A stretch of DNA of 64,000 bases from Halieaceae bacterium (GTDB lineage: Bacteria; Pseudomonadota; Gammaproteobacteria; Pseudomonadales; Halieaceae): positions 10,833 through 74,832 of the forward strand of contig JBLIEI010000014.1 of NCBI GenBank assembly GCA_047633055.1, written 5' to 3'. Both the position numbers and the translations under genes were made by a program. Below, piece after piece: positions 12,091 through 23,054 of this stretch (its first letter is position 1; every line of letters begins with the position of its first letter). The notes beneath the pieces are model-generated. The model made no database searches and had not been told where the DNA came from. It saw nothing but the letters and a program-made list of their open reading frames with translations.

Positions 12091-12166
12091 TCCGCTTTAG
12101 CTCAGTTGGTAGAGCAATTGACTGTTAATCAATGGGTCGCTGGTTCGAGCCCAGCAAGCGGAGCCA
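12091..12166 (+). tRNA. tRNA-Asn (anticodon GTT)
   Basis: The acceptor stem TCCGCTT/AAGCGGA is followed by G-CCA. The D-arm is AGCTCAGTTGGTAGAGC, the anticodon loop is CTGTTAA and the T-arm is GGTTCGAGCCC. Total length is 76 nt. Confidence 0.93.
12121..12166 (+). repeat. attL: 46-bp direct repeat formed by the 3' part of tRNA-Asn
   Basis: ACTGTTAATCAATGGGTCGCTGGTTCGAGCCCAGCAAGCGGAGCCA is identical to 22988-23033. Confidence 0.9.
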
Positions 12167-12173
12167 GATACAA

Positions 12174-12206: not shown

Positions 12207-12360
12207 ATGCCAAAAATAACGCAATAAATCCAAAAATAGTCCTATATTAGGACACTAGCAATTGTTTTTAGTTGCGGCTATACTTTGTGGATCGCGTACC
12301 GGAACGCAACAAGATGCAAACCGACGCAATGGGGTGAAAAGTCCAAGGCAGTTCGAAACT

Positions 12361-12384
12361 GCCGCAACTATTGCCGCAACTATT
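12361..12384 (+). repeat. tandem 12-mer GCCGCAACTATT x2 (candidate integrase arm-type site, left end)
   Basis: GCCGCAACTATTGCCGCAACTATT recurs at 22918-22941 as GCCGCAACTATTGCCGCACCTATT. Both copies are followed by an ACCCAATGA(T/C) motif. Confidence 0.5.
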
Positions 12385-12439: not shown

Positions 12440-13753
12440 ATGGCAATTCCAGAGGAAAGGACGTTCTCGAACGATACGCGGCTCCAATCGATCAAATGGC
12501 CTGGCGGATGCCGAGAGCCAAGACTCGATTTTGTCGACACACAAGAGGCTGGCCTCCGGTTCCGGATCACCCCCAAGGGAAAGCGCACTTTCGTCTATCG
12601 CTACTTTCCGAACGGCAGCAAGACCGGCAAACAGGTAACCTTGGGCACCTACCCCGCATACACCCTCAAGGAGGCGCGGGAACAGGTTCGGCAATTACGG
12701 AAGTCACGGGAAAGCGGAATCGACCCAAAGGTCGCCCTTGCCGACCAAAAACGGGCAGCGGCCGAAGCTGCTACCCCTGCCGAGGGTCGCTCGGCGCACT
12801 ACACTGTGAACGCCCTTTGCAGGGAGTGGCTCGACGATGTGCAAAATACAAAATCGAATAACACCTATAAGCAATATAAACACGTGGTTGAAAACTGGAT
12901 AAAGCCCGAGCTCGGCACTATCGCAGTTGCAAACGTTGGGCGGGACGATATCGCCAATATGCGACAGGCAATCCTAAGCAAGCGACATCGAAAAACAGGA
13001 AAGCCTCTAAACACACTCGCAAACAGATTGCAGGCGATCACGCGGGCCATGTTCAATTGGTGTATCGAAAACCGGAGCCAGAAAAGTGGGATCGAACTCA
13101 ATCCGGTTAATGGCCGCCAGAAATGGGGGGGCAAAGAAAATCCGCTTCGGCTGACCCTCCCCCCGCTAACGATCGACGCGGTTGCAAAAATCATCTACTA
13201 CGCCCGAGAGTCAAAGGCCAGCGACGCTATCCGGCTTTGTATCGAACTATGCTGGCGGATTGGACTTAGGCCGACTGAGGCCCGCACCGCCAAAAAGGGC
13301 GACTTTGATTTAAAGGCAAATATCTGGACGATACCCAAAACAAAAAACGGTATTCCCCTTCGTGTGATGTTGCCCAGCCAGGTCGCAAAGATAATCAAGA
13401 ACTATCTCGACACGCACAAATTCAATAAGTCCGACTCCATTTTCCGGAAATCCAGGGGGACAGGCCCTATGGACGCAAAACGAATCCAAAAAGTAATGAC
13501 CGCGCTTCACGACAACGAGCTATATGGCGGGAAAATGCACATCTCGCGACACGCCTTTATGTCATGGGCGAAAGCGAACAAGATCGGGCTCGACGTCCGC
13601 AACCGACTTACAAACCACGTCGACCGAAGCATCGATGCCACATACTCCCATGCAGACCTCGACGACGAGGCTCGCGAAGCATGGCATCGATATAGCAATG
13701 AGATCGAGCGCGAGATAAAGAAACTGCAAAAGAATTCGCCTAAAAAGCGATAA
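12440..13753 (+). CDS. tyrosine-type site-specific integrase (P4/CP4-57-like, DUF4102-type arm-binding N-terminus)
   Basis: The N-terminus reads GLRFRITPKGKRTFVYRYF..VTLGTYPAYTLKEAREQ. The C-terminal catalytic region carries SRHAF and ATYSH (the Tyr nucleophile context). The gene is adjacent to attL. Confidence 0.88.
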   Translation: MAIPEERTFSNDTRLQSIKWPGGCREPRLDFVDTQEAGLRFRITPKGKRTFVYRYFPNGSKTGKQVTLGTYPAYTLKEAREQVRQLRKSRESGIDPKVALADQKRAAAEAATPAEGRSAHYTVNALCREWLDDVQNTKSNNTYKQYKHVVENWIKPELGTIAVANVGRDDIANMRQAILSKRHRKTGKPLNTLANRLQAITRAMFNWCIENRSQKSGIELNPVNGRQKWGGKENPLRLTLPPLTIDAVAKIIYYARESKASDAIRLCIELCWRIGLRPTEARTAKKGDFDLKANIWTIPKTKNGIPLRVMLPSQVAKIIKNYLDTHKFNKSDSIFRKSRGTGPMDAKRIQKVMTALHDNELYGGKMHISRHAFMSWAKANKIGLDVRNRLTNHVDRSIDATYSHADLDDEAREAWHRYSNEIEREIKKLQKNSPKKR

Positions 13754-13822: not shown

Positions 13823-14077
13823 ATGACTGATAACAATTCTACTACTAACAACAGCAATACGCCCTCTGCCAGGTCTGCCGGAGAAATCTGCAACCTGGCG
13901 GCCTCACTTGGCGCCCTGTGCGACGACGCACTCGACAACCCCCAGCAGGTAACGTCCGCCCAGCTCGTCGCCATGAAAGCCCTGGCGGGCAATATTGGCG
14001 CGCTTGCCGATCATATTGGCGGGGGTGGGTATCGAACCGATGCGCTCGAATGGATGGGGGTGAACCCAAATGCCTAG
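13823..14077 (+). CDS. hypothetical protein (84 aa), island
   Basis: The ORF has a plausible RBS (AAGGT) and an 8-nt overlap with the next ORF. It has a low-complexity N-terminus and no recognisable motif. Confidence 0.45.
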   Translation: MTDNNSTTNNSNTPSARSAGEICNLAASLGALCDDALDNPQQVTSAQLVAMKALAGNIGALADHIGGGGYRTDALEWMGVNPNA

Positions 14078-15068
14078 CTTGCCTCGCCCTAATGTGGCGC
14101 AGCCAGAGTATACCCTCGACGAGTATACCCACTACTGCGGTCTTCATCGGGATACGGTTGACCGCCAAATAGACGGGGGCGAGCTTCGGCTTGCCTCTCC
14201 CTGTCCTGACAGAACACCTGGTAGACGCGGCTGTAAATCGATCGGGATATCGCTCGAAACTATGGATCGCAAAGCGCGGGCACTATTGGGAATGATACTT
14301 GAGCGCCGACTTGCCCATTCAGAGGTAACGATCAACGAGGCCAACGGACTGCTGCGCAAAGAGCTACTGCGCGAAAAGCTACTACTGCGCAAAAAGTTAC
14401 CGCCGCGCGAAAGGATACGGCGCGGAGGCCCCCCTAAATCCCCCAAGCTGTTGAGCCTACCCCGATCAGAGCCGCCCGAATACCTGTATGAAAGCGATAT
14501 AACTCGCGACTTCAATTTGTGCCGAGGAGGTTTCCAGACACCGGAAACTAAATACGAGCATGCAGCGTGGAAACGTTATTTTTATCAAGACCTGGACGGT
14601 CGCGAATATTTGCTCTGCCGTATCACTGCGGAGTTTGTCGAGGGAAAATTTTCGGGCGAAACATTGACGGTAGATGTTGTCGGCTCAGGCGACGTTATTC
14701 CATCGGAGCAATTCGAGGGTCGCCCCGCCACCCCGGCACAAGAATCCGCACCGGCAACTATAGAGCCTTTTGTTAGCCCCCAGAGAGGCAACCCGTTAAC
14801 AAATGCGATCGTTCAATTTGGTAACAATCTATTCAAGGAATCTAAAGAGGGCGAAACTCCAGGGTGGGGGGCTGTTCTACGCGCAATGCTCGACGAAGAA
14901 GGCAGAGAAGCTATGACGGAACTCGAATGCAAATACGACAAAGATACTAACGAGTTTTTCTATACGGACAGCAACGGCAAGAAAGAACGGGTAAGCAAAA
15001 GTACGGCGAGAGGGCGATACAACAGGAGGCGAAGAAAAGCCAATAAGGATGCAATAACGACCGATTAA
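14070..15068 (+). CDS. hypothetical protein with an excisionase-like HTH N-terminus (332 aa), island
   Basis: YTLDEYTHYCGLHRDTVDRQIDGGELRLA resembles excisionase/MerR-type HTHs. A basic repeat region (LLRKELLREKLLLRKKLPPRERIRR) follows. The remainder is unrecognised. Confidence 0.5.
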   Translation: MPSLPRPNVAQPEYTLDEYTHYCGLHRDTVDRQIDGGELRLASPCPDRTPGRRGCKSIGISLETMDRKARALLGMILERRLAHSEVTINEANGLLRKELLREKLLLRKKLPPRERIRRGGPPKSPKLLSLPRSEPPEYLYESDITRDFNLCRGGFQTPETKYEHAAWKRYFYQDLDGREYLLCRITAEFVEGKFSGETLTVDVVGSGDVIPSEQFEGRPATPAQESAPATIEPFVSPQRGNPLTNAIVQFGNNLFKESKEGETPGWGAVLRAMLDEEGREAMTELECKYDKDTNEFFYTDSNGKKERVSKSTARGRYNRRRRKANKDAITTD

Positions 15069-15129
15069 CAGAAAGATAGCCATTAGCGCGCAGTAGCCCG
15101 TTTTTTGCGCGCGGGTTCGCCCTGCGCCT

Positions 15130-15166
15130 TATACCTTGCAAACATTCCAATCAAAAGCAAGGTATA
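15130..15166 (+). promoter_or_regulatory. perfect 10-bp inverted repeat TATACCTTGC-N17-GCAAGGTATA covering the RBS of the HTH gene (operator or RBS-sequestering hairpin)
   Basis: The arms at 15130-15139 and 15157-15166 are exact reverse complements. AAGG at 15159-15162 lies 8 nt upstream of the ATG at 15171. Confidence 0.45.
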
Positions 15167-15170
15167 CAAA

Positions 15171-15416
15171 ATGGGCGCCACCACCCAAACAACGCTCCAG
15201 CAACTCGCCACGGAGTGCCACGTTTCGCTCCGAAAACTCCAGCTTGATGTAAAAAGTGGGATCCTAGAGATAACCCGCGTCGGGCGGACGCCGTTCGTTA
15301 CAGAAGAGCAAAAAGAAATCTACTTTTTACGCAACCGCGTTGCGAATAGCCCACGAACGTATGCCGAGGAACGAGAGCTCGAGCGCCTAGGTTTCCGAGC
15401 TAAACCGAATGAATAA
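15171..15416 (+). CDS. excisionase-family HTH DNA-binding protein (81 aa), island
   Basis: TLQQLATECHVSLRKLQLDVKSGILEITRVGRTPFV fits the excisionase-type HTH pattern. The start was trimmed to the ATG at 15171. The gene overlaps the next gene by 8 nt. Confidence 0.55.
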   Translation: MGATTQTTLQQLATECHVSLRKLQLDVKSGILEITRVGRTPFVTEEQKEIYFLRNRVANSPRTYAEERELERLGFRAKPNE

Positions 15417-16578
15417 GTGCGCAAGCGCGTCGCCAAAGTTCCGGCGCCGACTCGAGCTACTGTTACCGAAAAGCGACTTGCTGACTAGCCTCGACTGGCC
15501 AGACGAACAGGCCTATCAATTTCTTGTCGATCTCGACCAGGATATTGATCTGGGCGATGGCGGCCAATACTCCGTAGTTGCAAAAAAGAATGCTGCCATG
15601 CGAATGCTGAATGTCGGCGTCGACCATTCAGCCGTTGCCGTCTGGTATGTGTTAGCCGACTACGCATACAAAGGCAGCAAAGGCATTTGTTTCCCAAGCC
15701 TAACAACTATAGCCGGTCGTGTGAGCCTCTCCAGGCGCGCTGTTATCCGATGGATCAATTACCTAGTCGAGCTAGGGGCCGTTGAGAGACTGACCCGAGG
15801 CAACGGCAGAAACGAAGCTACCCGATATTTCATCATTACGACCTGGAACCCGTCGTTCGGCTTACACACTAGCGGCGCAAAGGGTGACGGCAACGGCACT
15901 ATTCCTACGAAATCTAATAGTGACAGTAGCGACACCGTTCCGGCCGAAATAGTGACACCTGTGACATTAAATAGTGACACCTATGACACGCAAATAGTGA
16001 CGCAGGTGTCACACGAATCTATCTATGAAACCGGCATTAAGCCGGTTGAAATAGATAGACAGGCTAACGCGCAAAAATCTTCGGGCGCTGAGGCGCCCTG
16101 CGATTTGGTCGCTCCGCCTGGAGAGCTGCGATTGTCTGAGGTATTTCGCAGGGGGTGGGGCGGGCTTAAACCTCGCGAGGCAAAACACACACAGCGGCAA
16201 CTAGCAAAATCCATGGCTGAGGGCGACACCCCCGACGAAATAGCCGACGGCCTGTTACGACACCTGGCGTGGGCTATGGCGTGGGAAAAGCCCCCCTGGC
16301 AACTCGCAGCGCTTTTACGCACATCGAAGTATCACGACGACTGGGACACTCGGCCTCCGGCAAAAAAGGATAAACCCAAAGCAAAGGCCGCCACCAGGTC
16401 AACGCCAGCACAACTCGCCCGGAGCATCTCAGACGATGATGCGGCATCGCTCGGCCCCACCCAGGCTCGAAAAATCTTTGACGAGCACCTCAAAGGCGAT
16501 TGCAAACTTTGCTCCAGCGGGGGTGCGACTCCGCCATGCGATAGCGGGGCGCGGCTAATACGGAAAATAACAGGCTAA
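15409..16578 (+). CDS. replication-initiator-like HTH protein (389 aa), island
   Basis: FPSLTTIAGRVSLSRRAVIRWINYLVELGAVERL is typical of HTH_36/Rep-O-like winged-helix initiators. The gene contains an iteron array (15916-16012). Confidence 0.55.
   Translation: MNKCASASPKFRRRLELLLPKSDLLTSLDWPDEQAYQFLVDLDQDIDLGDGGQYSVVAKKNAAMRMLNVGVDHSAVAVWYVLADYAYKGSKGICFPSLTTIAGRVSLSRRAVIRWINYLVELGAVERLTRGNGRNEATRYFIITTWNPSFGLHTSGAKGDGNGTIPTKSNSDSSDTVPAEIVTPVTLNSDTYDTQIVTQVSHESIYETGIKPVEIDRQANAQKSSGAEAPCDLVAPPGELRLSEVFRRGWGGLKPREAKHTQRQLAKSMAEGDTPDEIADGLLRHLAWAMAWEKPPWQLAALLRTSKYHDDWDTRPPAKKDKPKAKAATRSTPAQLARSISDDDAASLGPTQARKIFDEHLKGDCKLCSSGGATPPCDSGARLIRKITG
15916..16012 (+). repeat. iteron array (candidate island origin of replication) inside the Rep-like gene
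   Basis: Four copies of (A)AATAGTGAC start at about 15916, 15948, 15970 and 15993. The last three are spaced 22-23 bp apart. The last copy is part of the inverted repeat GTGAC-N6-GTCAC. Confidence 0.6.
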
Positions 16579-17043: not shown

Positions 17044-17331
17044 GTGTTTATGACTGACCCAGAAAACAAAGATCAAGTCGTGAGAATTGACGGCAGCGGC
17101 ACAACCTCCGCTAAAGTTCGTGAAGCGGCAAGCCTTTATCTACAGCGTGCCGGAGGCGGCCCAGAGGTGAGCTTCGCCAAGTCCCTAAGGTTCTATGCCG
17201 AGATTGGGGCTGAATTCGAAAGGCTTCGCATCCTTGGCGGAAACTTCCCGTTCTCGACCGAGCAGGCATTGAAGCTTCACGCGCAAAAAATGGCAGGGGG
17301 TCGTGAGTCGACCCACCTGGAGATCAAATAA
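17044..17331 (+). CDS. hypothetical protein (95 aa) translationally coupled to the capsid gene, island
   Basis: A good RBS (AAAGAGG) precedes it and its stop overlaps the next start (TAATG at 17329-17333). The function is unrecognised. Confidence 0.55.
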   Translation: MFMTDPENKDQVVRIDGSGTTSAKVREAASLYLQRAGGGPEVSFAKSLRFYAEIGAEFERLRILGGNFPFSTEQALKLHAQKMAGGRESTHLEIK

Positions 17332-19280
17332 TGGGGGTGAAATCCCCCACCACGCCCGACTGGCTCGAACTGTCGAACTTGTGTCGATCTGATCGAGTCG
17401 AGGGTAAAACCTGGTTCGATATGAAAGCGCAAGGGGAAACCCTCGAACTTTCGATATACGACGAAATCGGAATGTGGGGCGTTAATGGCTCCGACTTTAA
17501 ACGCGCCCTCGACGGGTTCGATAATGTTTCCGAGATTGTTTTAAATATGCACTCGCCAGGCGGATCGGTTTTCGACGGCCTGGCAATTTACAATCAACTG
17601 AAAAACCATAAAGCGAAAGTTACCGTCAAAATCGACGGCCTCGCGGCCTCAATCGCGAGCGTTATCGCTATGGCGGGGGATACGATAATTATTCCCGAGA
17701 ACGCTTTTATTATGATTCATAAACCGCGAATGCCCGCAAATGGTATCGCGGACGAATTGCGCGAAAGCGCCGATCTTTTAGATAAGGTCGAAACGACGTT
17801 GATTGCGGCCTACCGCGTCAAAACGGGTTTAACCGATTCCGATATTTCTGAAATGCTCGAGGCCGAAACATGGCTAACTGGCATCGAAGCAGTCGAGATG
17901 GGATTTGCCGACGAAATAGCCGAGCCAATCCAGGCAGCGGCTACTTTAAACAATGGCTTAATCGAGGAGTACTCTCAAATGCCAAGCAAAGCTAAAACAC
18001 TAATCAGCGCCACCCCCGCCGATAAATTCAAGGCTGCCGAACTGGCTCGCCGTACTGAGGTAAAAGCGGTATTCGCAGATTTCCCCCAGCACGACGACGT
18101 TCGCAATGGTTGCCTCGACGATATGGAGTGCTCCGCCGAGACTGCCCGCGCTAAACTGCTGGCAACTATGGGCGCCGCTGCTACTCCGAGCGCGGCAGCC
18201 ATCCACGTCGGCAACGGCTCCATAGTTCGCGACGTGCTCCAGGATGCGCTACAGGCGCGCACTGGAGCCGCCACGCTGCAAGATAAAGGCAACCCCTACC
18301 AGGCATCGAGTTTGCTTGATCTGGCGCGCGCATCGCTGATACAGAACGGTACGGGCGTTGCAACACTTGCGCCTATGCAGGTCGTAGCGGCCGCCTTTAC
18401 ACACAGCTCCGGCGACTTTGGCTCGGTTCTTTCCAATGTGGCCGAGAAATCGCTACTGAATGGCTGGAACTCCGCGCCAGAAACATATCCCCTGTGGACG
18501 CGTAAAGGCACGTTGTCATCGTTTCGGCCCGCATTGCGCGCCGGTATTGGTGGCTACCCAGTGTTGCCGTCTGTTGCAGAGGGCGCCGAGTATACACACG
18601 CCACCATGAACGACACTGGGGAAGTAATCGCCCTGGCGAAACACGGTTCCATGTTCTCAATCACCCGCGAGGCGATCATTAACGACGACCTGGACGCGTT
18701 CTACCGCATACCGGCCGGACAGGGTCGAGCGGCCATGCGGACGATCGGAAGCCTGGTGTATGCATGCCTAACTGGCAATACGGTGATGAGCGACGGCAAG
18801 GGTATATTCCATGCCGATCACGGCGGCAACACAATCGTAGACGCCCTCGACATAGGCGGCATCGCAAACATGCGTAGAATTATGCGTATGCAGACTGATA
18901 ACGCCGGACAATCTCTGAACATTGCCCCTGGTTATTTGCTCGTTCCGGCGGCGCTGGAATCGCAAGCGCAACAGGTTATCGCCTCGACGGCCGTACCTGG
19001 CGCCGACAGTAATTCCGGCATTAAGAATCCGGTCAACTCCGCAGCCGAGATCGTTGTCGAGAGTCGCCTCGATGCGGCCTCTGCTGACAGTTTTTACATG
19101 GTTGCGGGCGCTGGCGACACGATCGAGGTTGCATTCCTCGACGGCATGGACACTCCCTACCTGGAACAGCAGGCCGGTTGGAGCGTTGACGGCGTTAGCT
19201 TCAAGGTACGGATCGAAGCTGGCGTTGCGCCGATAGACTACCGTGGATTTGTTCGCGGAACTGGCGGTTTGCCCGTATAG
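17331..19280 (+). CDS. prohead protease / major capsid protein fusion (ClpP-type S14/S49 protease N-terminus, HK97-fold capsid C-terminus)
   Basis: The N-terminus reads MHSPGGSVFDGLAIYNQL..IDGLAASIASVIAMAGD..FIMIHKP, with ClpP-like Ser and His contexts. The C-terminal ~320 aa (..YPLWTRKG..GAEYTHATMND..FSITREAIINDD..) resemble phage major capsid proteins. Confidence 0.75.
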   Translation: MGVKSPTTPDWLELSNLCRSDRVEGKTWFDMKAQGETLELSIYDEIGMWGVNGSDFKRALDGFDNVSEIVLNMHSPGGSVFDGLAIYNQLKNHKAKVTVKIDGLAASIASVIAMAGDTIIIPENAFIMIHKPRMPANGIADELRESADLLDKVETTLIAAYRVKTGLTDSDISEMLEAETWLTGIEAVEMGFADEIAEPIQAAATLNNGLIEEYSQMPSKAKTLISATPADKFKAAELARRTEVKAVFADFPQHDDVRNGCLDDMECSAETARAKLLATMGAAATPSAAAIHVGNGSIVRDVLQDALQARTGAATLQDKGNPYQASSLLDLARASLIQNGTGVATLAPMQVVAAAFTHSSGDFGSVLSNVAEKSLLNGWNSAPETYPLWTRKGTLSSFRPALRAGIGGYPVLPSVAEGAEYTHATMNDTGEVIALAKHGSMFSITREAIINDDLDAFYRIPAGQGRAAMRTIGSLVYACLTGNTVMSDGKGIFHADHGGNTIVDALDIGGIANMRRIMRMQTDNAGQSLNIAPGYLLVPAALESQAQQVIASTAVPGADSNSGIKNPVNSAAEIVVESRLDAASADSFYMVAGAGDTIEVAFLDGMDTPYLEQQAGWSVDGVSFKVRIEAGVAPIDYRGFVRGTGGLPV

Positions 19281-19386
19281 GTTTACCCGCTATTGGCATG
19301 GCGGGAACCCCTAAGGGGTGAAAGTCCGGAACTTGAAGAACTCCGGCAAAAGTCCTGGCGGTTTAGTTGGCCGTTAGGCGCCTCGA

Positions 19387-19428
19387 GGGGGCGCATTTGG
19401 CTGGAAGCCTCATGCGTCCCCTTTTTTT
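19387..19428 (+). terminator. rho-independent terminator after the capsid gene
   Basis: GGGG(G)CGCAT (19387-19396) pairs with ATGCGTCCCC (19412-19421) and is followed by T7 (19422-19428). Confidence 0.65.
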
Positions 19429-19451
19429 GAAAAGGTACTCCCGCCGATCTG

Positions 19452-19502
19452 AGGTATACGGGGGCGCGGAGTCGCAGTCGCTCACTATTTACGAATTTTT
19501 TT
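19452..19502 (+). promoter_or_regulatory. lambda cosN-like sequence (candidate cohesive-end packaging site of the island)
   Basis: The island sequence is AGGTATACGGGGGCGCGGAGTCGCAGTCGCTCACTATTTACGAATTTTTTT. As I recall it, lambda reads AGGTTACG|GGGCGGCGACCT|CGCGGGTTTTCGCTATTTATGAAAATTTT. The site lies directly upstream of a Nu1 homologue. Confidence 0.5.
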
Positions 19503-19503
19503 A

Positions 19504-20055
19504 ATGGAGGTTGTTGTTTTGTCGAGCACAGATATAGACCCGCTCTGGTTAAACAAACGTGACGCCGCAGCGTCGGTGGGGATTTCAACACAAGCCTTTA
19601 GTAAATGGGGTGTAAAGCCCGTTCAGCGTTCAGGCCGCGAGGTGTTTTTCACTGTTCGCGATATCGTCGACAATCGGGTTGAGAGAGCACTTAAAGGAGC
19701 AAACGGCGAAACTCCCGGGGAACTCGAGAATTTGGGGCGCAAGAAGTATCTCGAGGACTACCGTCTCGCGAAAGCCCGTCGAATAGCTCAAGAGCAAAAA
19801 AATGATCTCGCTGCCGGAACAATGATTCCGACTGATTTCGCAACGTTTGCACTCTCGAAGATTGCCGCTCGAATCGCCTCGATCCTGGACACGCTCCCGC
19901 TAACTATGCGGCGGGCTCACCCGGACCTCGAGTCTCGACACATTGATTCCTTTACTCGCGAAGTTGCGAAGGCGCGAAACGTGGCGGCGGAGGTCGACGA
20001 AATCCTACCTGAGTTGGTCGAGGAATATGCCGCCCTTACAAACGAGTCAAGTTAA
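19504..20055 (+). CDS. terminase small subunit, lambda Nu1-like
   Basis: TFALSKIAARIASILDTLPLTMRRAHPDLESRHIDSFTREVAKARNVAAEVDEILPELVEEYA aligns closely with lambda Nu1 (TFVLSRIAGEIASILDGLPLSVQRRFPELENRHVDFLKRDIIKAMNKAAALDELIPGLLSEYI). An N-terminal HTH (AASVGISTQAFSKWG) is present. Confidence 0.85.
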   Translation: MEVVVLSSTDIDPLWLNKRDAAASVGISTQAFSKWGVKPVQRSGREVFFTVRDIVDNRVERALKGANGETPGELENLGRKKYLEDYRLAKARRIAQEQKNDLAAGTMIPTDFATFALSKIAARIASILDTLPLTMRRAHPDLESRHIDSFTREVAKARNVAAEVDEILPELVEEYAALTNESS

Positions 20056-20320
20056 GAATTTAATAAAAGCAGTTTGCCTCGGCCTGTCTTCACTATTCCG
20101 GCCGGAGCCATTGAGAGCTGCTAAGCGCGCCGCTTTTGACTTCACCGCCGCGTCAATCGCGCTGGGAGATGCTCCCCGACTGTTGGGCGTATTTGTACGG
20201 TCGATTTGCCCCCCCCCCCAGCCCTTGGCCCAGCAAGCGGTTCACTGGGGCGCACGAGACCGTCGGAACGGGCTCAGCCTTCCGTGCCCCCGTTTCCGAC
20301 CTGCGCCTCAGCTAGAGAAA

Positions 20321-22339
20321 TCACCTCAGCAATTTATTAACTCGATCGATTAGGCCCGACCACTGGGCAGCTTCATTTTCTTGAAGGTCGGCGGCAGTGT
20401 GGTCTCTAGTCCATCGGACATATGCTTTCGCCAATTTATACTTCGAAAACCCCTCAACGTCAGAGGTAAAAATATCTACTATCGGTCTTCCCGGTTGACT
20501 TAGAGCCGCGCTAGAAGTATCGACGCCAAACTCACTTGCAACAATGCTGATCAGCGTTCCCCTAAGCAGGTCTTCGATTTCGGCTTTTTCCACTCCCGAG
20601 CAATAGTCTTTAGTTCTAAGAATATTTTTGTTACCTAGAGTGTGGACCAGATTTTCTTGTTGTGCTGCTTGATCGCCAGCGGCGTCAGAGTCTAATAGGG
20701 CAGCGACCTTTAATCTGTGTGCGTGCAATATAGTTGCGTAGTAAACAAGCTTTCCTGCGGAGTTTGCAAAAACCAGAGAAATTTTATTGTTTAAATCAAT
20801 AATCTCACTCTCCCGAAGCATTGCGGACGTAGATTCCAGGTACCAATAGTCGGTGATGCCCTCCATGACTAGATTTCTACTCTGCGAAAAAAGGCTGCTA
20901 GCAAGGTCGTAGCCAAGGGCTTCTTGCAGGGGCAGCAATCCAGCGGGATCACCAGACGAAATGGCTAGGTGAACTTTCGTGCCTTCGGCTCTCGTCTTCA
21001 TTTCAACCACTCTGACGATATCTAATTCGTCGGGCCCCACTAGAAACGGAGAATGTGTTGAAAAAAGAGTTTGGTTCGCTGCCGCAAGCCGCGATAGGGT
21101 GTTTCTAAATTCACATTGCTTGAGCCCATGTAGGCTCATTCCGGGCTCGTCCAACAATAGAATTGCGTTCTCGTGTTTGTCTATCGCCTCCGCGAAAAAA
21201 ACAACGAAGAATGAAACAAGCCATTGAAAGCCCTCGGATCGTTGATCCAATTCGATATCCACTCCAAGATCATCTTCCACCACAACCTTCAAGTATTGCC
21301 CATCGACCAAAACTTTCAGTTTGTCCGCCTCAGGCCGATTGGAATCAGGCAGCCAAACAGATAGTATTTCCCTTGTTAGCCGGACGCTCGCAGCGTTGAG
21401 TTGGTAACTTCTTATATCGAGATTGTCTCTATAGGTTTTAAGGGCCTCAGCGTCATTTATGCCCGGTTCGGGGGTTTTTCCTAGAGCGGAAAGCTCTCTC
21501 GGCGTAAACCCAAGTAGCTTCAAGAGGCAGATGTTTCCGTAATCAAAGAACTCATCGTCAAGTATCTGATCTTCGGTTCTTCTCGCAAGATGCTCCAAAT
21601 GAATTAAAGGTTTTACGCGAAAGTAATTATTGAAAAGAATAAAGACTGGGACCCGTTCACCGAGCGTTTTCAGCGCGGATTCCCACAAGCCGTTGAACGC
21701 AATAGCTTCAATCAATGCGTCGTATCTGGCCTCTTCTTTATCATTATCCTCATCGACAAACTCGTAGCTTTCCTCCAGCCATTTATTAAGATTTTTTGAC
21801 GTATCCCCCGAAACCCATGTGTAGTCGGCCCAATCGCTCGTTAAAGCCTTGAGCGAATCGCTAGGTTTTATTGGATCAGTATCCGATTCCTCGGGTGAAT
21901 ACTGTTTGTCCATGTGAGCGGCAATCCTGACTAAGTCCTTTTTCAAGTCTTTAAACCAAATTTTTTCCTGGCCACCCACCAGCGTATGCGTCCCTCGATT
22001 TGAATAATACCGACTAAGCTTGTATTCACTATCATGAAAAGCTTCCGGTATGAGGGCCTTGTCGGTATCTTCCAGTCTAAAGGTCCCCTCAACGACAACA
22101 GTTTCGTTCGGCTCCACTGCACCGGTCGTAACGTCATTATATTTCGACCGCGGGTAGTCTCTAAGGATGTCAAACCCCGGCGTATCCTCTGGCCGATTTA
22201 GCTGTTGCAAGGCCCTAAATAAAACTGTTTTTCCAGCTTCATTGGGGCCGACTAAAATTGTTTTTAAGTCTTCAATTTCGAATTCCGTAGAATCTACAAT
22301 GCTTCGATAGCTCTGAACTCTTGCTTTTACTAATTTCAT
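20321..22339 (-). CDS. OLD-family nuclease-like protein: ABC/AAA_15-type ATPase fused to a C-terminal TOPRIM domain (672 aa)
   Basis: Walker A is GPNEAGKT (aa 31-38), the signature-like motif is SEGFQWLV, Walker B is ILLLDEPGMSLH and the H-loop is FSTHSPF. The TOPRIM Glu (NLVMEGITDYWYL) and DxD (LLDSDAAGD) are present. Sampled 60-nt lines are ~35-47% GC against ~57-60% in neighbouring genes. Confidence 0.75.
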   Translation of the reverse strand: MKLVKARVQSYRSIVDSTEFEIEDLKTILVGPNEAGKTVLFRALQQLNRPEDTPGFDILRDYPRSKYNDVTTGAVEPNETVVVEGTFRLEDTDKALIPEAFHDSEYKLSRYYSNRGTHTLVGGQEKIWFKDLKKDLVRIAAHMDKQYSPEESDTDPIKPSDSLKALTSDWADYTWVSGDTSKNLNKWLEESYEFVDEDNDKEEARYDALIEAIAFNGLWESALKTLGERVPVFILFNNYFRVKPLIHLEHLARRTEDQILDDEFFDYGNICLLKLLGFTPRELSALGKTPEPGINDAEALKTYRDNLDIRSYQLNAASVRLTREILSVWLPDSNRPEADKLKVLVDGQYLKVVVEDDLGVDIELDQRSEGFQWLVSFFVVFFAEAIDKHENAILLLDEPGMSLHGLKQCEFRNTLSRLAAANQTLFSTHSPFLVGPDELDIVRVVEMKTRAEGTKVHLAISSGDPAGLLPLQEALGYDLASSLFSQSRNLVMEGITDYWYLESTSAMLRESEIIDLNNKISLVFANSAGKLVYYATILHAHRLKVAALLDSDAAGDQAAQQENLVHTLGNKNILRTKDYCSGVEKAEIEDLLRGTLISIVASEFGVDTSSAALSQPGRPIVDIFTSDVEGFSKYKLAKAYVRWTRDHTAADLQENEAAQWSGLIDRVNKLLR

Positions 22340-22855: not shown

Positions 22856-22917
22856 GCTGGAAGGATAACCCAACTAGCCAATACACTGAAACGTTGCGGT
22901 AAACCTACAGAAAGAAT

Positions 22918-22941
22918 GCCGCAACTATTGCCGCACCTATT
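22918..22941 (+). repeat. tandem 12-mer GCCGCAACTATT/GCCGCACCTATT (candidate integrase arm-type site, right end)
   Basis: A near-identical copy of 12361-12384, in the same orientation, lying 47 bp inside attR. Confidence 0.5.
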
Positions 22942-22987
22942 ATAGGAATATTACCCAATGATCACTATTTTAGAGACTTTGCGAATA

Positions 22988-23033
22988 ACTGTTAATCAAT
23001 GGGTCGCTGGTTCGAGCCCAGCAAGCGGAGCCA
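22988..23033 (+). repeat. attR: 46-bp direct repeat (duplicated 3' part of tRNA-Asn)
   Basis: Identical to 12121-12166. The sequence diverges immediately on both sides. Confidence 0.9.
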
Positions 23034-23054
23034 TATTTAGTATTGAATATCAAA

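Follow-up and report, generated by a model that had tools for sequence, protein, structure and literature searches.

How is the DNA of a small integrated island packaged when the island carries a gene for a small terminase subunit (terS) and none for a large one (terL)? This question is raised by a stretch of 64,000 nucleotides from a Halieaceae bacterium (GenBank assembly GCA_047633055.1, contig JBLIEI010000014.1, positions 10,833 to 74,832 of the forward strand), hereafter the window, in which terS (19519..20055, + strand) encodes a protein of 178 aa counted from a TTG codon. The homology of this protein to Nu1, already recognised in a sequence-only reading of the locus, is borne out by profile matches (Pfam Phage_Nu1, 1e-19; PHROG terminase small subunit, 9e-37). 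The same reading had argued for packaging of the island from a cohesive-end site (cos) by a lambda-like (Nu1/gpA) terminase, which is still the best reading, given the gapless homology of the nicking site (cosN), the Nu1-family TerS and the contigs of relatives that end at the predicted nick. Based on the comparisons reported here, positions 19433-19519 are very probably the cos of a 10.9-kb integrated satellite of the phage-inducible chromosomal island (PICI) type, laid out as in lambda and N15 with a cosQ-like element, cosN, an I2-like box and one R3-type TerS-binding element.

Results

Likeness to lambda-type cos sequence

The segment in which a likeness to lambda had been noticed, AGGTATACGGGGGCGCGGAGTCGCAGTCGCTCACTATTTACGAATTTTTTT (a 51-mer), is found exactly at 19452-19502, and the lambda junction with which it had been compared proved correct: record NC_001416 ends ...GACAGGTTACG (last bases ...CCGACAGGTTACG) and starts GGGCGGCGACCTCGCGGGTTTTCGCTATTTATGAAAATTTT (first bases GGGCGGCGACCTCGCGGGTTTTCGCTATTTATGAAAATTTTCCGG). 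In a local alignment of the window with lambda, AGGTATACGGGGGCGCGGAGTCGCAGTCGCTCACTATTTACGAATTTTTT stands against AGGT-TACGGGGCGGCGACCTCGCGGGTTTTCGCTATTTATGAAAATTTT, with one gap and none from TACG onward; column by column, the segment follows lambda cosN gaplessly from TACG/GGGG (the slash marking the nick) through the TTTT run, in agreement with the blocks that the earlier reading had placed on both sides of the lambda nick.

Taken with lambda alone, the likeness is only marginal. The site is the top nhmmer match in the window at E=0.013, and in pairwise Smith-Waterman comparison the lambda junction gives a score of 23 there and of 24 at three other places in the window, for which reason we discarded such comparison as proof, the site not being singled out. 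When a profile was made from cos sequences of 13 phages, leaving out the window, all satellites and the two phages closest to them, it matched 19432-19520 at E=9.7e-13 (43 bits), and the runner-up in the 64 kb had E=0.09. Other searches returned little: a blastn search with 19283-19520 as query found chance matches only among 50,697 phage records, a scan of IMG/VR with the exact cos pattern gave zero matches, IMG/VR scans gave no confirmed relative for a TerS query and no relative for a Rep query, and a metagenome pattern scan for cos gave two loci only, both of them decayed remnants.

Sub-sites of the probable cos region

Sites are numbered here with bp 1 at window position 19461, and the regions 5' of terS were aligned gaplessly, anchored on the TATTTAYGA box. 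When two satellites and five phages are aligned, the invariant columns are limited to the cosQ, cosN and I2 blocks, and both flanks are unalignable. The box, in the form CTATTTAYGA at bp 25-34, and a GGTTGTTGTT element at bp ~47-60 are found in lambda, N15, F10 and 12 other phages.

The cosQ-like element, AGGTACTCCC (19433..19442, + strand; -28..-19 from the top-strand nick), is a putative cosQ by its conservation across relatives, its GGT.CT.CC being unchanged in all seven aligned satellites and phages, again between unalignable flanks. Phages with the same cosN have at this position either AAGGTACTCCC, which is the island form, or GGGTCCTCCC, which contains GGGTCCT. We take GGGTCCT to be the lambda cosQ heptamer, both in sequence and in position, as reportedly described by Wieczorek and Feiss in 2001; in the lambda record it lies at -30..-24. 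The island has AGGTACT at -28..-22, identical to the heptamer at 5/7 positions, and related phages with the same cosN have GGGTCCT itself at -28..-22. As a site of 7 bp, cosQ is highly conserved (PMC4669245).

The cosN 16-mer, CG/GGGGCGCGGAGT/CG (19459..19474), is predicted to be nicked at 19460/19461 on the top strand and at 19472/19473 on the bottom strand; its alignment with CG/GGGCGGCGACCT/CG of lambda and CG/GGGCGGCGTCCG/CG of N15 needs no gap. Its ATACGGGGGCGCGGAG is unchanged in 7/7 related elements, and a phage with a matching cosN would carry the string GGGGCGCGGAG. Cleavage at these nicks would leave a 12-nt 5' cohesive end, GGGGCGCGGAGT (19461..19472, + strand), predicted from the contig starts of relatives and, for its length, from homology. 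The G-run with which this end starts shows a one-base length difference between relatives (L016 and L021 versus L009 and L017).

Downstream, an I2-like box, CTATTTACGA (bp 25-34), followed by a T-run (19485..19502 together, + strand), stands in register with lambda and N15; the box is also found at bp 25-34 in lambda (CTATTTATGA), N15 (CTATATATGA), F10 and all the related phages, and its CTAT.TA.GA is unchanged across the seven-sequence alignment. I2 is the segment between cosN and cosB, is required together with cosQ and cosN for the termination of packaging, and is conserved in lambda, 21 and N15 (PMC4669245).

The R3-type element as predicted cosB, and the terS start

The predicted cosB is a single R3-type TerS-binding element, GAGGTTGTTGTTT (bp 47-59; 19507..19519, + strand), a 13-mer identical to bp 48-60 of N15, which linker-scanning mutagenesis has mapped as R3-N15 (PMC9026076). 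It is unique in the window, where chance would give 0.09 matches at <=1 mismatch. No second R element, direct or inverted (including one like the rR2 of N15), was found within 19300-20300, and the arrangement is thus of the N15/PICI type, with a single R-type element, and not the complex R3-I1-R2-R1 cosB of lambda; a single R element at bp ~48-65 is also what N15 and the enteric PICIs have (PMC9026076). Some enteric prophages additionally carry an inverted ACAACAACC copy. The sequence-only reading had left three places for cosB, namely missing, inside the gene, or upstream in the structured DNA of 19283-19428. The first and the last do not hold, and the element found, at 19507-19519, overlaps the ribosome-binding site and start codon of terS. 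The upstream region was rejected since it is common only to the sister satellite (described below) and absent from the phages that have the cos.

Across the relatives, the class of R3 follows the class of the TerS DNA-binding domain: GGTTGTTGTT goes with ISxQAF(D/S)KWGV, GGTTGCTATTTATAT with ITPQALGKWGLRP, and GGTTGTTTTATATA with ISVQA(F/L)(S/G)KWGVEP. The satellite R3, GTTGTTGTTT, is unlike that of all nine phage loci with the same cosN (L011, L012, L013, L018, L101, L102, L106, L107, L108); the phage version is GGGTTGTTTTATA.

The start of terS most likely is the TTG at 19519, with the Shine-Dalgarno sequence GGAGG at 19506-19510, rather than the ATG at 19504, because a Halomonas prophage (L017) reads GAGGTTGTTGTTTAGATGTCGAGC (ATG TCG AGC) and the decayed remnant L016 is without any ATG. 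With this start, the gap of ~25 nt that had been given between the site and terS grows to 46 nt, measured from the 3' limit of the cohesive end. A short spacing between cosN and terS is normal for the clade, the gene starting at bp 66 in F10, at bp 72 in L013-L015 and at bp 89 in N15, compared with bp 191 in lambda. R3 itself overlaps both the GGAGG and the TTG. The GGTTGTTGTT element at bp ~47-60 is also present in N15, L070, L052, L067 and L087, whose terS start codons lie 30-130 nt further on; R3 is therefore more than a ribosome-binding site, since the element holds its distance to cosN and not to the start codon.

Directly upstream of cos lies the predicted intrinsic terminator of the capsid gene (19385..19428, + strand), a hairpin of -28.1 kcal/mol (z = -3.25) followed by T7, with an equivalent hairpin, showing compensatory changes, in the sister satellite L009. 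It was found by folding and missed by a consensus terminator scan, probably because the stem/loop model of the scanner (loop 3-8) does not fit a two-tier hairpin. Between the capsid gene and this terminator, 19283-19384 holds three hairpins and a repeated CAAAAGTCC motif; the stems are kept in L009 with compensatory changes (7/38 pairs altered on both sides, two sequences being compared). Rfam gave nothing credible over 19200-19600, and 19283-19384 may be a satellite-specific RNA or protein-binding region.

DNA ends in related phages

Several relatives end where the island is predicted to be cut. One phage, present in three NCBI metagenome assemblies (L013, L014, L015), starts in all of them at GGGGCGCGGAGTCGCGGG..., i.e. 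at the column that contains bp 1 of lambda and position 19461 of the window, and its first 12 bases are exactly GGGGCGCGGAGT; terS and then terL follow in all three, and the longest (L013) runs on to the portal and protease-capsid genes. A different phage (P0005; locus L108, from an unrelated Logan run) starts GGGCGCGGAGGCGC..., within 1 nt of the bp 1 column, bringing the contig starts at the predicted left end to two related phages in four assemblies. Among the reference genomes, the N15 record has its first 12 bases annotated as a 5' sticky end, and in the record of F10, whose TerS is of the same clade as that of the island, the terminal bases ...AGAGGGTAATTCGAGCA and the first bases TGGTAATTCGAGCCCCG overlap by 12 nt, which would be the pattern expected for a 12-nt 5' overhang if run-off sequencing read through the 5' extension.

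The predicted position of the left nick is thus supported by the contig ends of relatives; the overhang length of 12 nt and the bottom-strand nick at 19472/19473 are predicted from lambda, N15 and F10. As a separate observation, an ENA metagenome contig (L100, 1-38) has a Nextera transposase adaptor (…AGATGTGTATAAGAGACAG) joined to phage DNA ~21 bp inside the predicted cos end, and this junction at ~bp 21 is compatible with a molecule end nearby.

The TerS protein and its relatives

The island TerS is full length relative to the phage TerS proteins, and its two ends differ in how far they follow them: the C-terminal domain is 78-83% identical to that of the closest phage TerS (40/45 in the last 45 aa to P0003), and the N-terminal DNA-binding domain only 53-62%. 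Over the whole protein, identity is 60-69% to the phage proteins P0003-P0007, 44-51% to those of Pseudomonas temperate phages (F10, JBD68, MD8 and others) and 47.5% to N15. In a large protein collection, the closest protein, 76% identical, belongs to a sister satellite (P0002; loci L009 and L010), in which a capsid gene is followed by terS and then by PemK and Abi_2 cargo, without terL.

The fullest phage loci, L011 and L013, carry in order terS, a gpA-type terL, a small open reading frame (ORF), the portal gene, a protease::capsid fusion and tail genes, and the contigs of the shorter relatives show that order as far as each of them reaches. The 12-mer cohesive end of the island is that of L011 and L013. 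A candidate helper lineage is L011/L012, in which the 12-mer is exact in L011 and 11/12 in L012, with 40/45 identity in the TerS tail. A genome scan yielded 80 loci, mostly prophages with the module of L011 and L013 in Pseudomonas, Halomonas, Aeromonas, Spongiibacter, Shewanella and enterics; the nearest relatives of the island are marine, from a Haliea metagenome-assembled genome (MAG; L016), a TARA contig (L097) and Spongiibacter.

Some of the loci stand apart. L016 (6900-8433) and L097 are decayed satellite remnants with cos, a frameshifted terS and a TIR-domain gene by queE/queC, and L096 (10447-10900) is a decayed remnant with a 64-aa capsid fragment and cos, without terS. In a Lysobacterales MAG (L088, 4763-11482), a Nu1-like terS lies in an unusual order between a ClpP-protease gene and gpZ/tape-measure genes, with no terL after it. 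Four contigs of 737-1238 nt attributed to Bradyrhizobium, Kitasatospora, Chromatium and Paenibacillus (L091, L093, L094, L095) start with 40-mers equal to lambda bp 44-108, in the cosB region, and look like contamination by lambda or cosmid DNA.

Anatomy of the island

The island is bounded by attL (12114..12169, + strand), which is the 3' part of a tRNA-Asn gene (12091-12166) and a 56-nt direct repeat 93% identical to 22981-23036, and by attR (22981..23036, + strand), the direct repeat of attL; the unit between the tRNA-Asn repeats measures 10,867 bp. Just within both ends, tandem 12-mers TGCCGCAACTAT (12360-12384 and 22905-22941) are probably arm-type binding sites of the integrase, a tyrosine recombinase with an arm-binding domain (Arm-DNA-bind_3; 12440..13753, + strand). 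The ORFs at 14070-15068 and 15105-15416 gave no family match, and a PICI regulator (AlpA/MerR) is therefore unconfirmed. The replication initiator (HTH_36, O-like; 15409..16578, + strand) contains within its gene, at 15915-16011, four ~20-nt iterons (AAATAGTGACACCTGTGACA-like) at 22-32-nt spacing, likely the origin of the island. An ORF of 106 aa at 16608-16928 matches "HNH endonuclease" PHROGs in their non-catalytic part only; judged by eye, it resembles a stand-alone AP2-type DNA-binding domain and may regulate the island. An HNH-dependent cos system relying on this ORF was considered and rejected, the match being confined to the non-catalytic part (AP2-like by inspection) and gpA-type terminases needing no HNH protein.

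The gene upstream of cos (17331..19280, + strand) encodes a ClpP-like prohead protease fused to a major capsid protein, 649 aa in all (Pfam CLP_protease and Phage_capsid_4; PHROG 133, 1.5e-230), which shares 54-55% identity with the corresponding fusion of phages L011 and L013. Scanning IMG/VR with this fusion gave 33 loci, none of which has a terS of the Nu1 type close by; these phages have different terminases and carry no information on cos. Convergent with terS, and with no adjoining partner gene, lies an OLD-like gene (20321..22339, - strand) for an ABC-type ATPase with a TOPRIM nuclease domain, 672 aa long (Pfam AAA_15 and OLD-like_TOPRIM; best PADLOC match Old, 6.7e-22), probably a single-gene anti-phage cargo of the satellite; its position is taken in sister elements by PemK and Abi_2 (L009) and by a TIR protein (L016). 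An 11-C run (20211-20221) separates the two convergent genes, and long C/G runs near cos also occur in L011, L012, L022 and L025.

Homologues of TerL and portal proteins are found neither in the island nor anywhere in the 64-kb window. PICIs are recognised by an integrase, an AlpA/MerR regulator, a replication module with origin, a capsid-morphogenesis gene and terS, in that order, over ~10 kb, by att sites, and by the lack of lysis, tail, portal or terL genes (PMC10085698). The core of this set is present here, with int, rep with iterons, the capsid fusion and terS in order over 10,867 bp, and it is because these are present, and TerL and portal absent, that we class the island as a PICI-type satellite.

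Discussion

Proposed mechanism

From work on lambda-type systems, it is known that TerS bound at R3 anchors TerL for accurate nicking of cosN, that the C-terminal part of TerS binds TerL, that packaging is terminated by cosQ, cosN and I2, and that enteric PICIs combine helper-type cosQ and cosN with a private R3 read through the protein Rpp (PMC9026076, PMC4669245, PMC6739421). For the island, we infer its cleavage, the 12-nt overhang, the binding of TerS to R3, the recruitment of TerL and the identity of the helper. A helper phage would induce the island, which would excise at the tRNA-Asn att sites and, replicating from its own initiator and iterons, form concatemers. The island Nu1-type TerS would then bind GAGGTTGTTGTTT (bp 47-59) via its winged-helix N-terminal domain, and its C-terminal domain, which shares 78-83% identity with those of related phages, would recruit the gpA-type TerL of the helper, which would nick cosN 12 bp apart and leave 5' GGGGCGCGGAGT ends. 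Packaging would proceed from 19461 towards terS, the direction known for lambda, and stop at the next cos, 10,867 bp on, using cosQ, cosN and I2. The island protease-capsid fusion would probably supply or resize the shell, and portal, TerL, head-completion proteins and tail would have to come from the helper. In such a scheme, cosN, cosQ, I2 and the TerL-binding tail are kept in a form compatible with the helper, and a private R3 paired with the island's own DNA-binding domain would send the helper TerL to island concatemers. Set against genomes of 39-48 kb (F10, N15, lambda), a monomer of 10.9 kb amounts to roughly a quarter to a third; it could be accommodated in small shells, most obviously ones made with the protease::capsid fusion, or as 3-4 copies (32.6-43.5 kb) per full-size head, and several copies per full-size head have been discussed for EcCICFT073 (PMC6092414).

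Points against and alternative explanations

Several observations weigh against this reading. The two-fold symmetry of cosN is lower than in lambda and N15 (8/16 positions versus 10/16 in both). The contig ends back the left end only, and could be assembly breaks at a repeat common to phage and satellite. Part of the conservation of R3 could be translational, given its overlap with the Shine-Dalgarno sequence. No phage was found that combines the cosN of the island with its R3, no helper prophage lies within the window, and no helper was found. Finally, cos occurs in just two intact satellites (the window and L009/L010), in addition to being kept by the decayed remnants L016, L097 and L096, so that recent ancestry would partly lie behind its conservation among satellites.

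The alternative that survives best, although we consider it unlikely, accepts the cos as real and makes the island TerS an Rpp-like protein, which would form a mixed complex with the helper TerS, block its recognition of the phage cosB and redirect it to the island R3, the helper TerS still being needed. Redirection by Rpp is a demonstrated mechanism for PICIs with lambda-type cos (PMC6739421, PMC9026076), the satellite R3 is unlike that of phages with the same cosN, as in EcCICFT073, and since TerS DNA-binding domains dimerise, an identity of 53-62% to the closest phages makes mixed dimers plausible. Rpp proteins, however, have 135-153 aa and are without the C-terminal TerL-binding segment, whereas the island protein has 178 aa and a tail with 40/45 identity; because it aligns to the very C-terminus of phage TerS, it has everything needed for TerL recruitment.

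We give considerably less weight to the idea that the cos block is an unused relic, brought in with a captured phage terS, in an island that is defective or mobilised otherwise. Decayed remnants (L016/L097 and L096) do retain the cos sequence, and no helper is known, but here the four sub-sites are intact and in exact register, and the att sites, int, rep, full-length capsid fusion and terS are intact as well; moreover, between the window and L009 (TerS 76% identical) the cos core is near-identical, whereas the adjoining intergenic DNA has diverged with indels. That the block is nothing but the promoter and translation-initiation region of terS, conserved through the homology of the gene and no terminase substrate, is hardly credible: it does lie directly 5' of terS and its R3 includes GGAGG, but no sigma-70-like promoter was found, the homologous positions of lambda and N15 are genetically mapped cos sub-sites, phage contigs end within it at the nick column, and GGTTGTTGTT holds a constant distance to cosN, not to the start codon.

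Returning to the island as a cos satellite packaged through its own TerS, a more specific proposal, which we put forward tentatively and regard as doubtful, is that the island and its sister L009 form a distinct marine-gammaproteobacterial lineage of cos satellites. Such a lineage would be defined by a "TerS-swap" (a full Nu1-type TerS with the TerL-binding tail of the helper, a private N15-type R3 and helper-like cosQ, cosN and I2) and by a shell of its own, built or resized with the protease::capsid fusion, so that the helper would provide no more than portal, TerL, connectors and tail. If true, it would stand between classical PICIs and those that form their own capsids (cf-PICIs). Given the overlap of R3 with the ribosome-binding site and start codon, TerS binding might in addition autoregulate terS.

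With the present results, a hypothetical island becomes a mechanistically annotated satellite for which the cohesive end, the nicks, the site of TerS binding and the direction of packaging are predicted. More generally, the lambda/N15 cos layout (cosQ, cosN, I2 at bp 25-34, R3 at bp ~47-60) is kept in register well past the enteric phages, with examples from phages of Pseudomonas, Halomonas, Aeromonas and Spongiibacter, from uncultured marine phages and from the satellites of these, which offers a simple sequence rule for locating cos ends and cos satellites in metagenomes.

Comparison with known systems

Among satellites that encode capsid proteins, cf-PICIs resemble the island in having their own major capsid protein, protease and TerS, and differ from it in encoding TerL, portal and head-tail connectors (none of which is present in the island or the window), only tails being taken from the helper. 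SaPIbov5, a cos-type Staphylococcus aureus pathogenicity island with the capsid homologue Ccm, likewise unites a helper-type cos with its own HK97-fold capsid homologue, but it is a Gram-positive element that lacks a TerS gene and whose terminase system is HNH-dependent.

The island resembles lambda in its homologous cosQ, cosN and I2, whose register is unchanged, in having CG flank the nicks, and in a Nu1/gpA-type terminase; it differs at 4/12 bases of the cohesive end, and lambda has a cosB of 120 bp (R3-I1-R2-R1) with the R sequence CGTTTCC... and its Nu1 start at bp 191. The likeness to N15 extends further: in both, the cohesive end is lambda-like and 12 nt long, the I2 box occupies bp 25-34, cosB consists of a single R3 and lacks an IHF site, and the R3 13-mer GAGGTTGTTGTTT is identical (bp 48-60 in N15, bp 47-59 in the island). 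In contrast to the island, N15 is an autonomous phage with terL beside terS and a terS start at bp 89, has, ~200 bp into terS, an inverted rR2 that is non-critical and has no counterpart in the island, and differs at 4/12 bases of the cohesive end.

The closest known system is the cos1-rpp region of the EcCICFT073-type PICIs (Fillol-Salom 2018, 2019; Murialdo and Feiss 2022), whose cos sites are experimentally functional (PMC6092414, PMC6739421). Both are integrated satellites of ~10 kb with int, replication genes and a capsid homologue, and in both a lambda-type cosQ/cosN matching helper-type phages is combined with a single private element at the R3 position, a Nu1-related gene just after cos, and then accessory genes. 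The order of capsid homologue, cos and Nu1-like gene is the same in an enteric PICI of Superficieibacter (L069), laid out as an AAA_25 replication protein, capsid E and decoration D homologues, AlpA, cosQ GGGTCCT, cosN GGGCGTCGACCT, CTATTTATGA and the Nu1-like gene. The island departs from the EcCICFT073 type in its full-length Nu1-type TerS with a helper-like TerL-binding tail (theirs being the truncated Rpp), in a capsid gene that is a ClpP-protease::capsid fusion (theirs being the lambda E/D pair), in its cohesive end GGGGCGCGGAGT, in an N15-type R3 that overlaps the start codon, and in having its relatives in marine Gammaproteobacteria (the Haliea MAG, the TARA metagenome and Spongiibacter) and not in enterics. 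It is thus well supported that the element is of a kind already known, the cos-type PICI satellite mechanism having been described from enteric satellites, and its cos site reveals no new kind of mechanism; what it adds is the extension of the "helper-type cosN plus private cosB" design from the Rpp-bearing enteric PICIs to an island with a full TerS.

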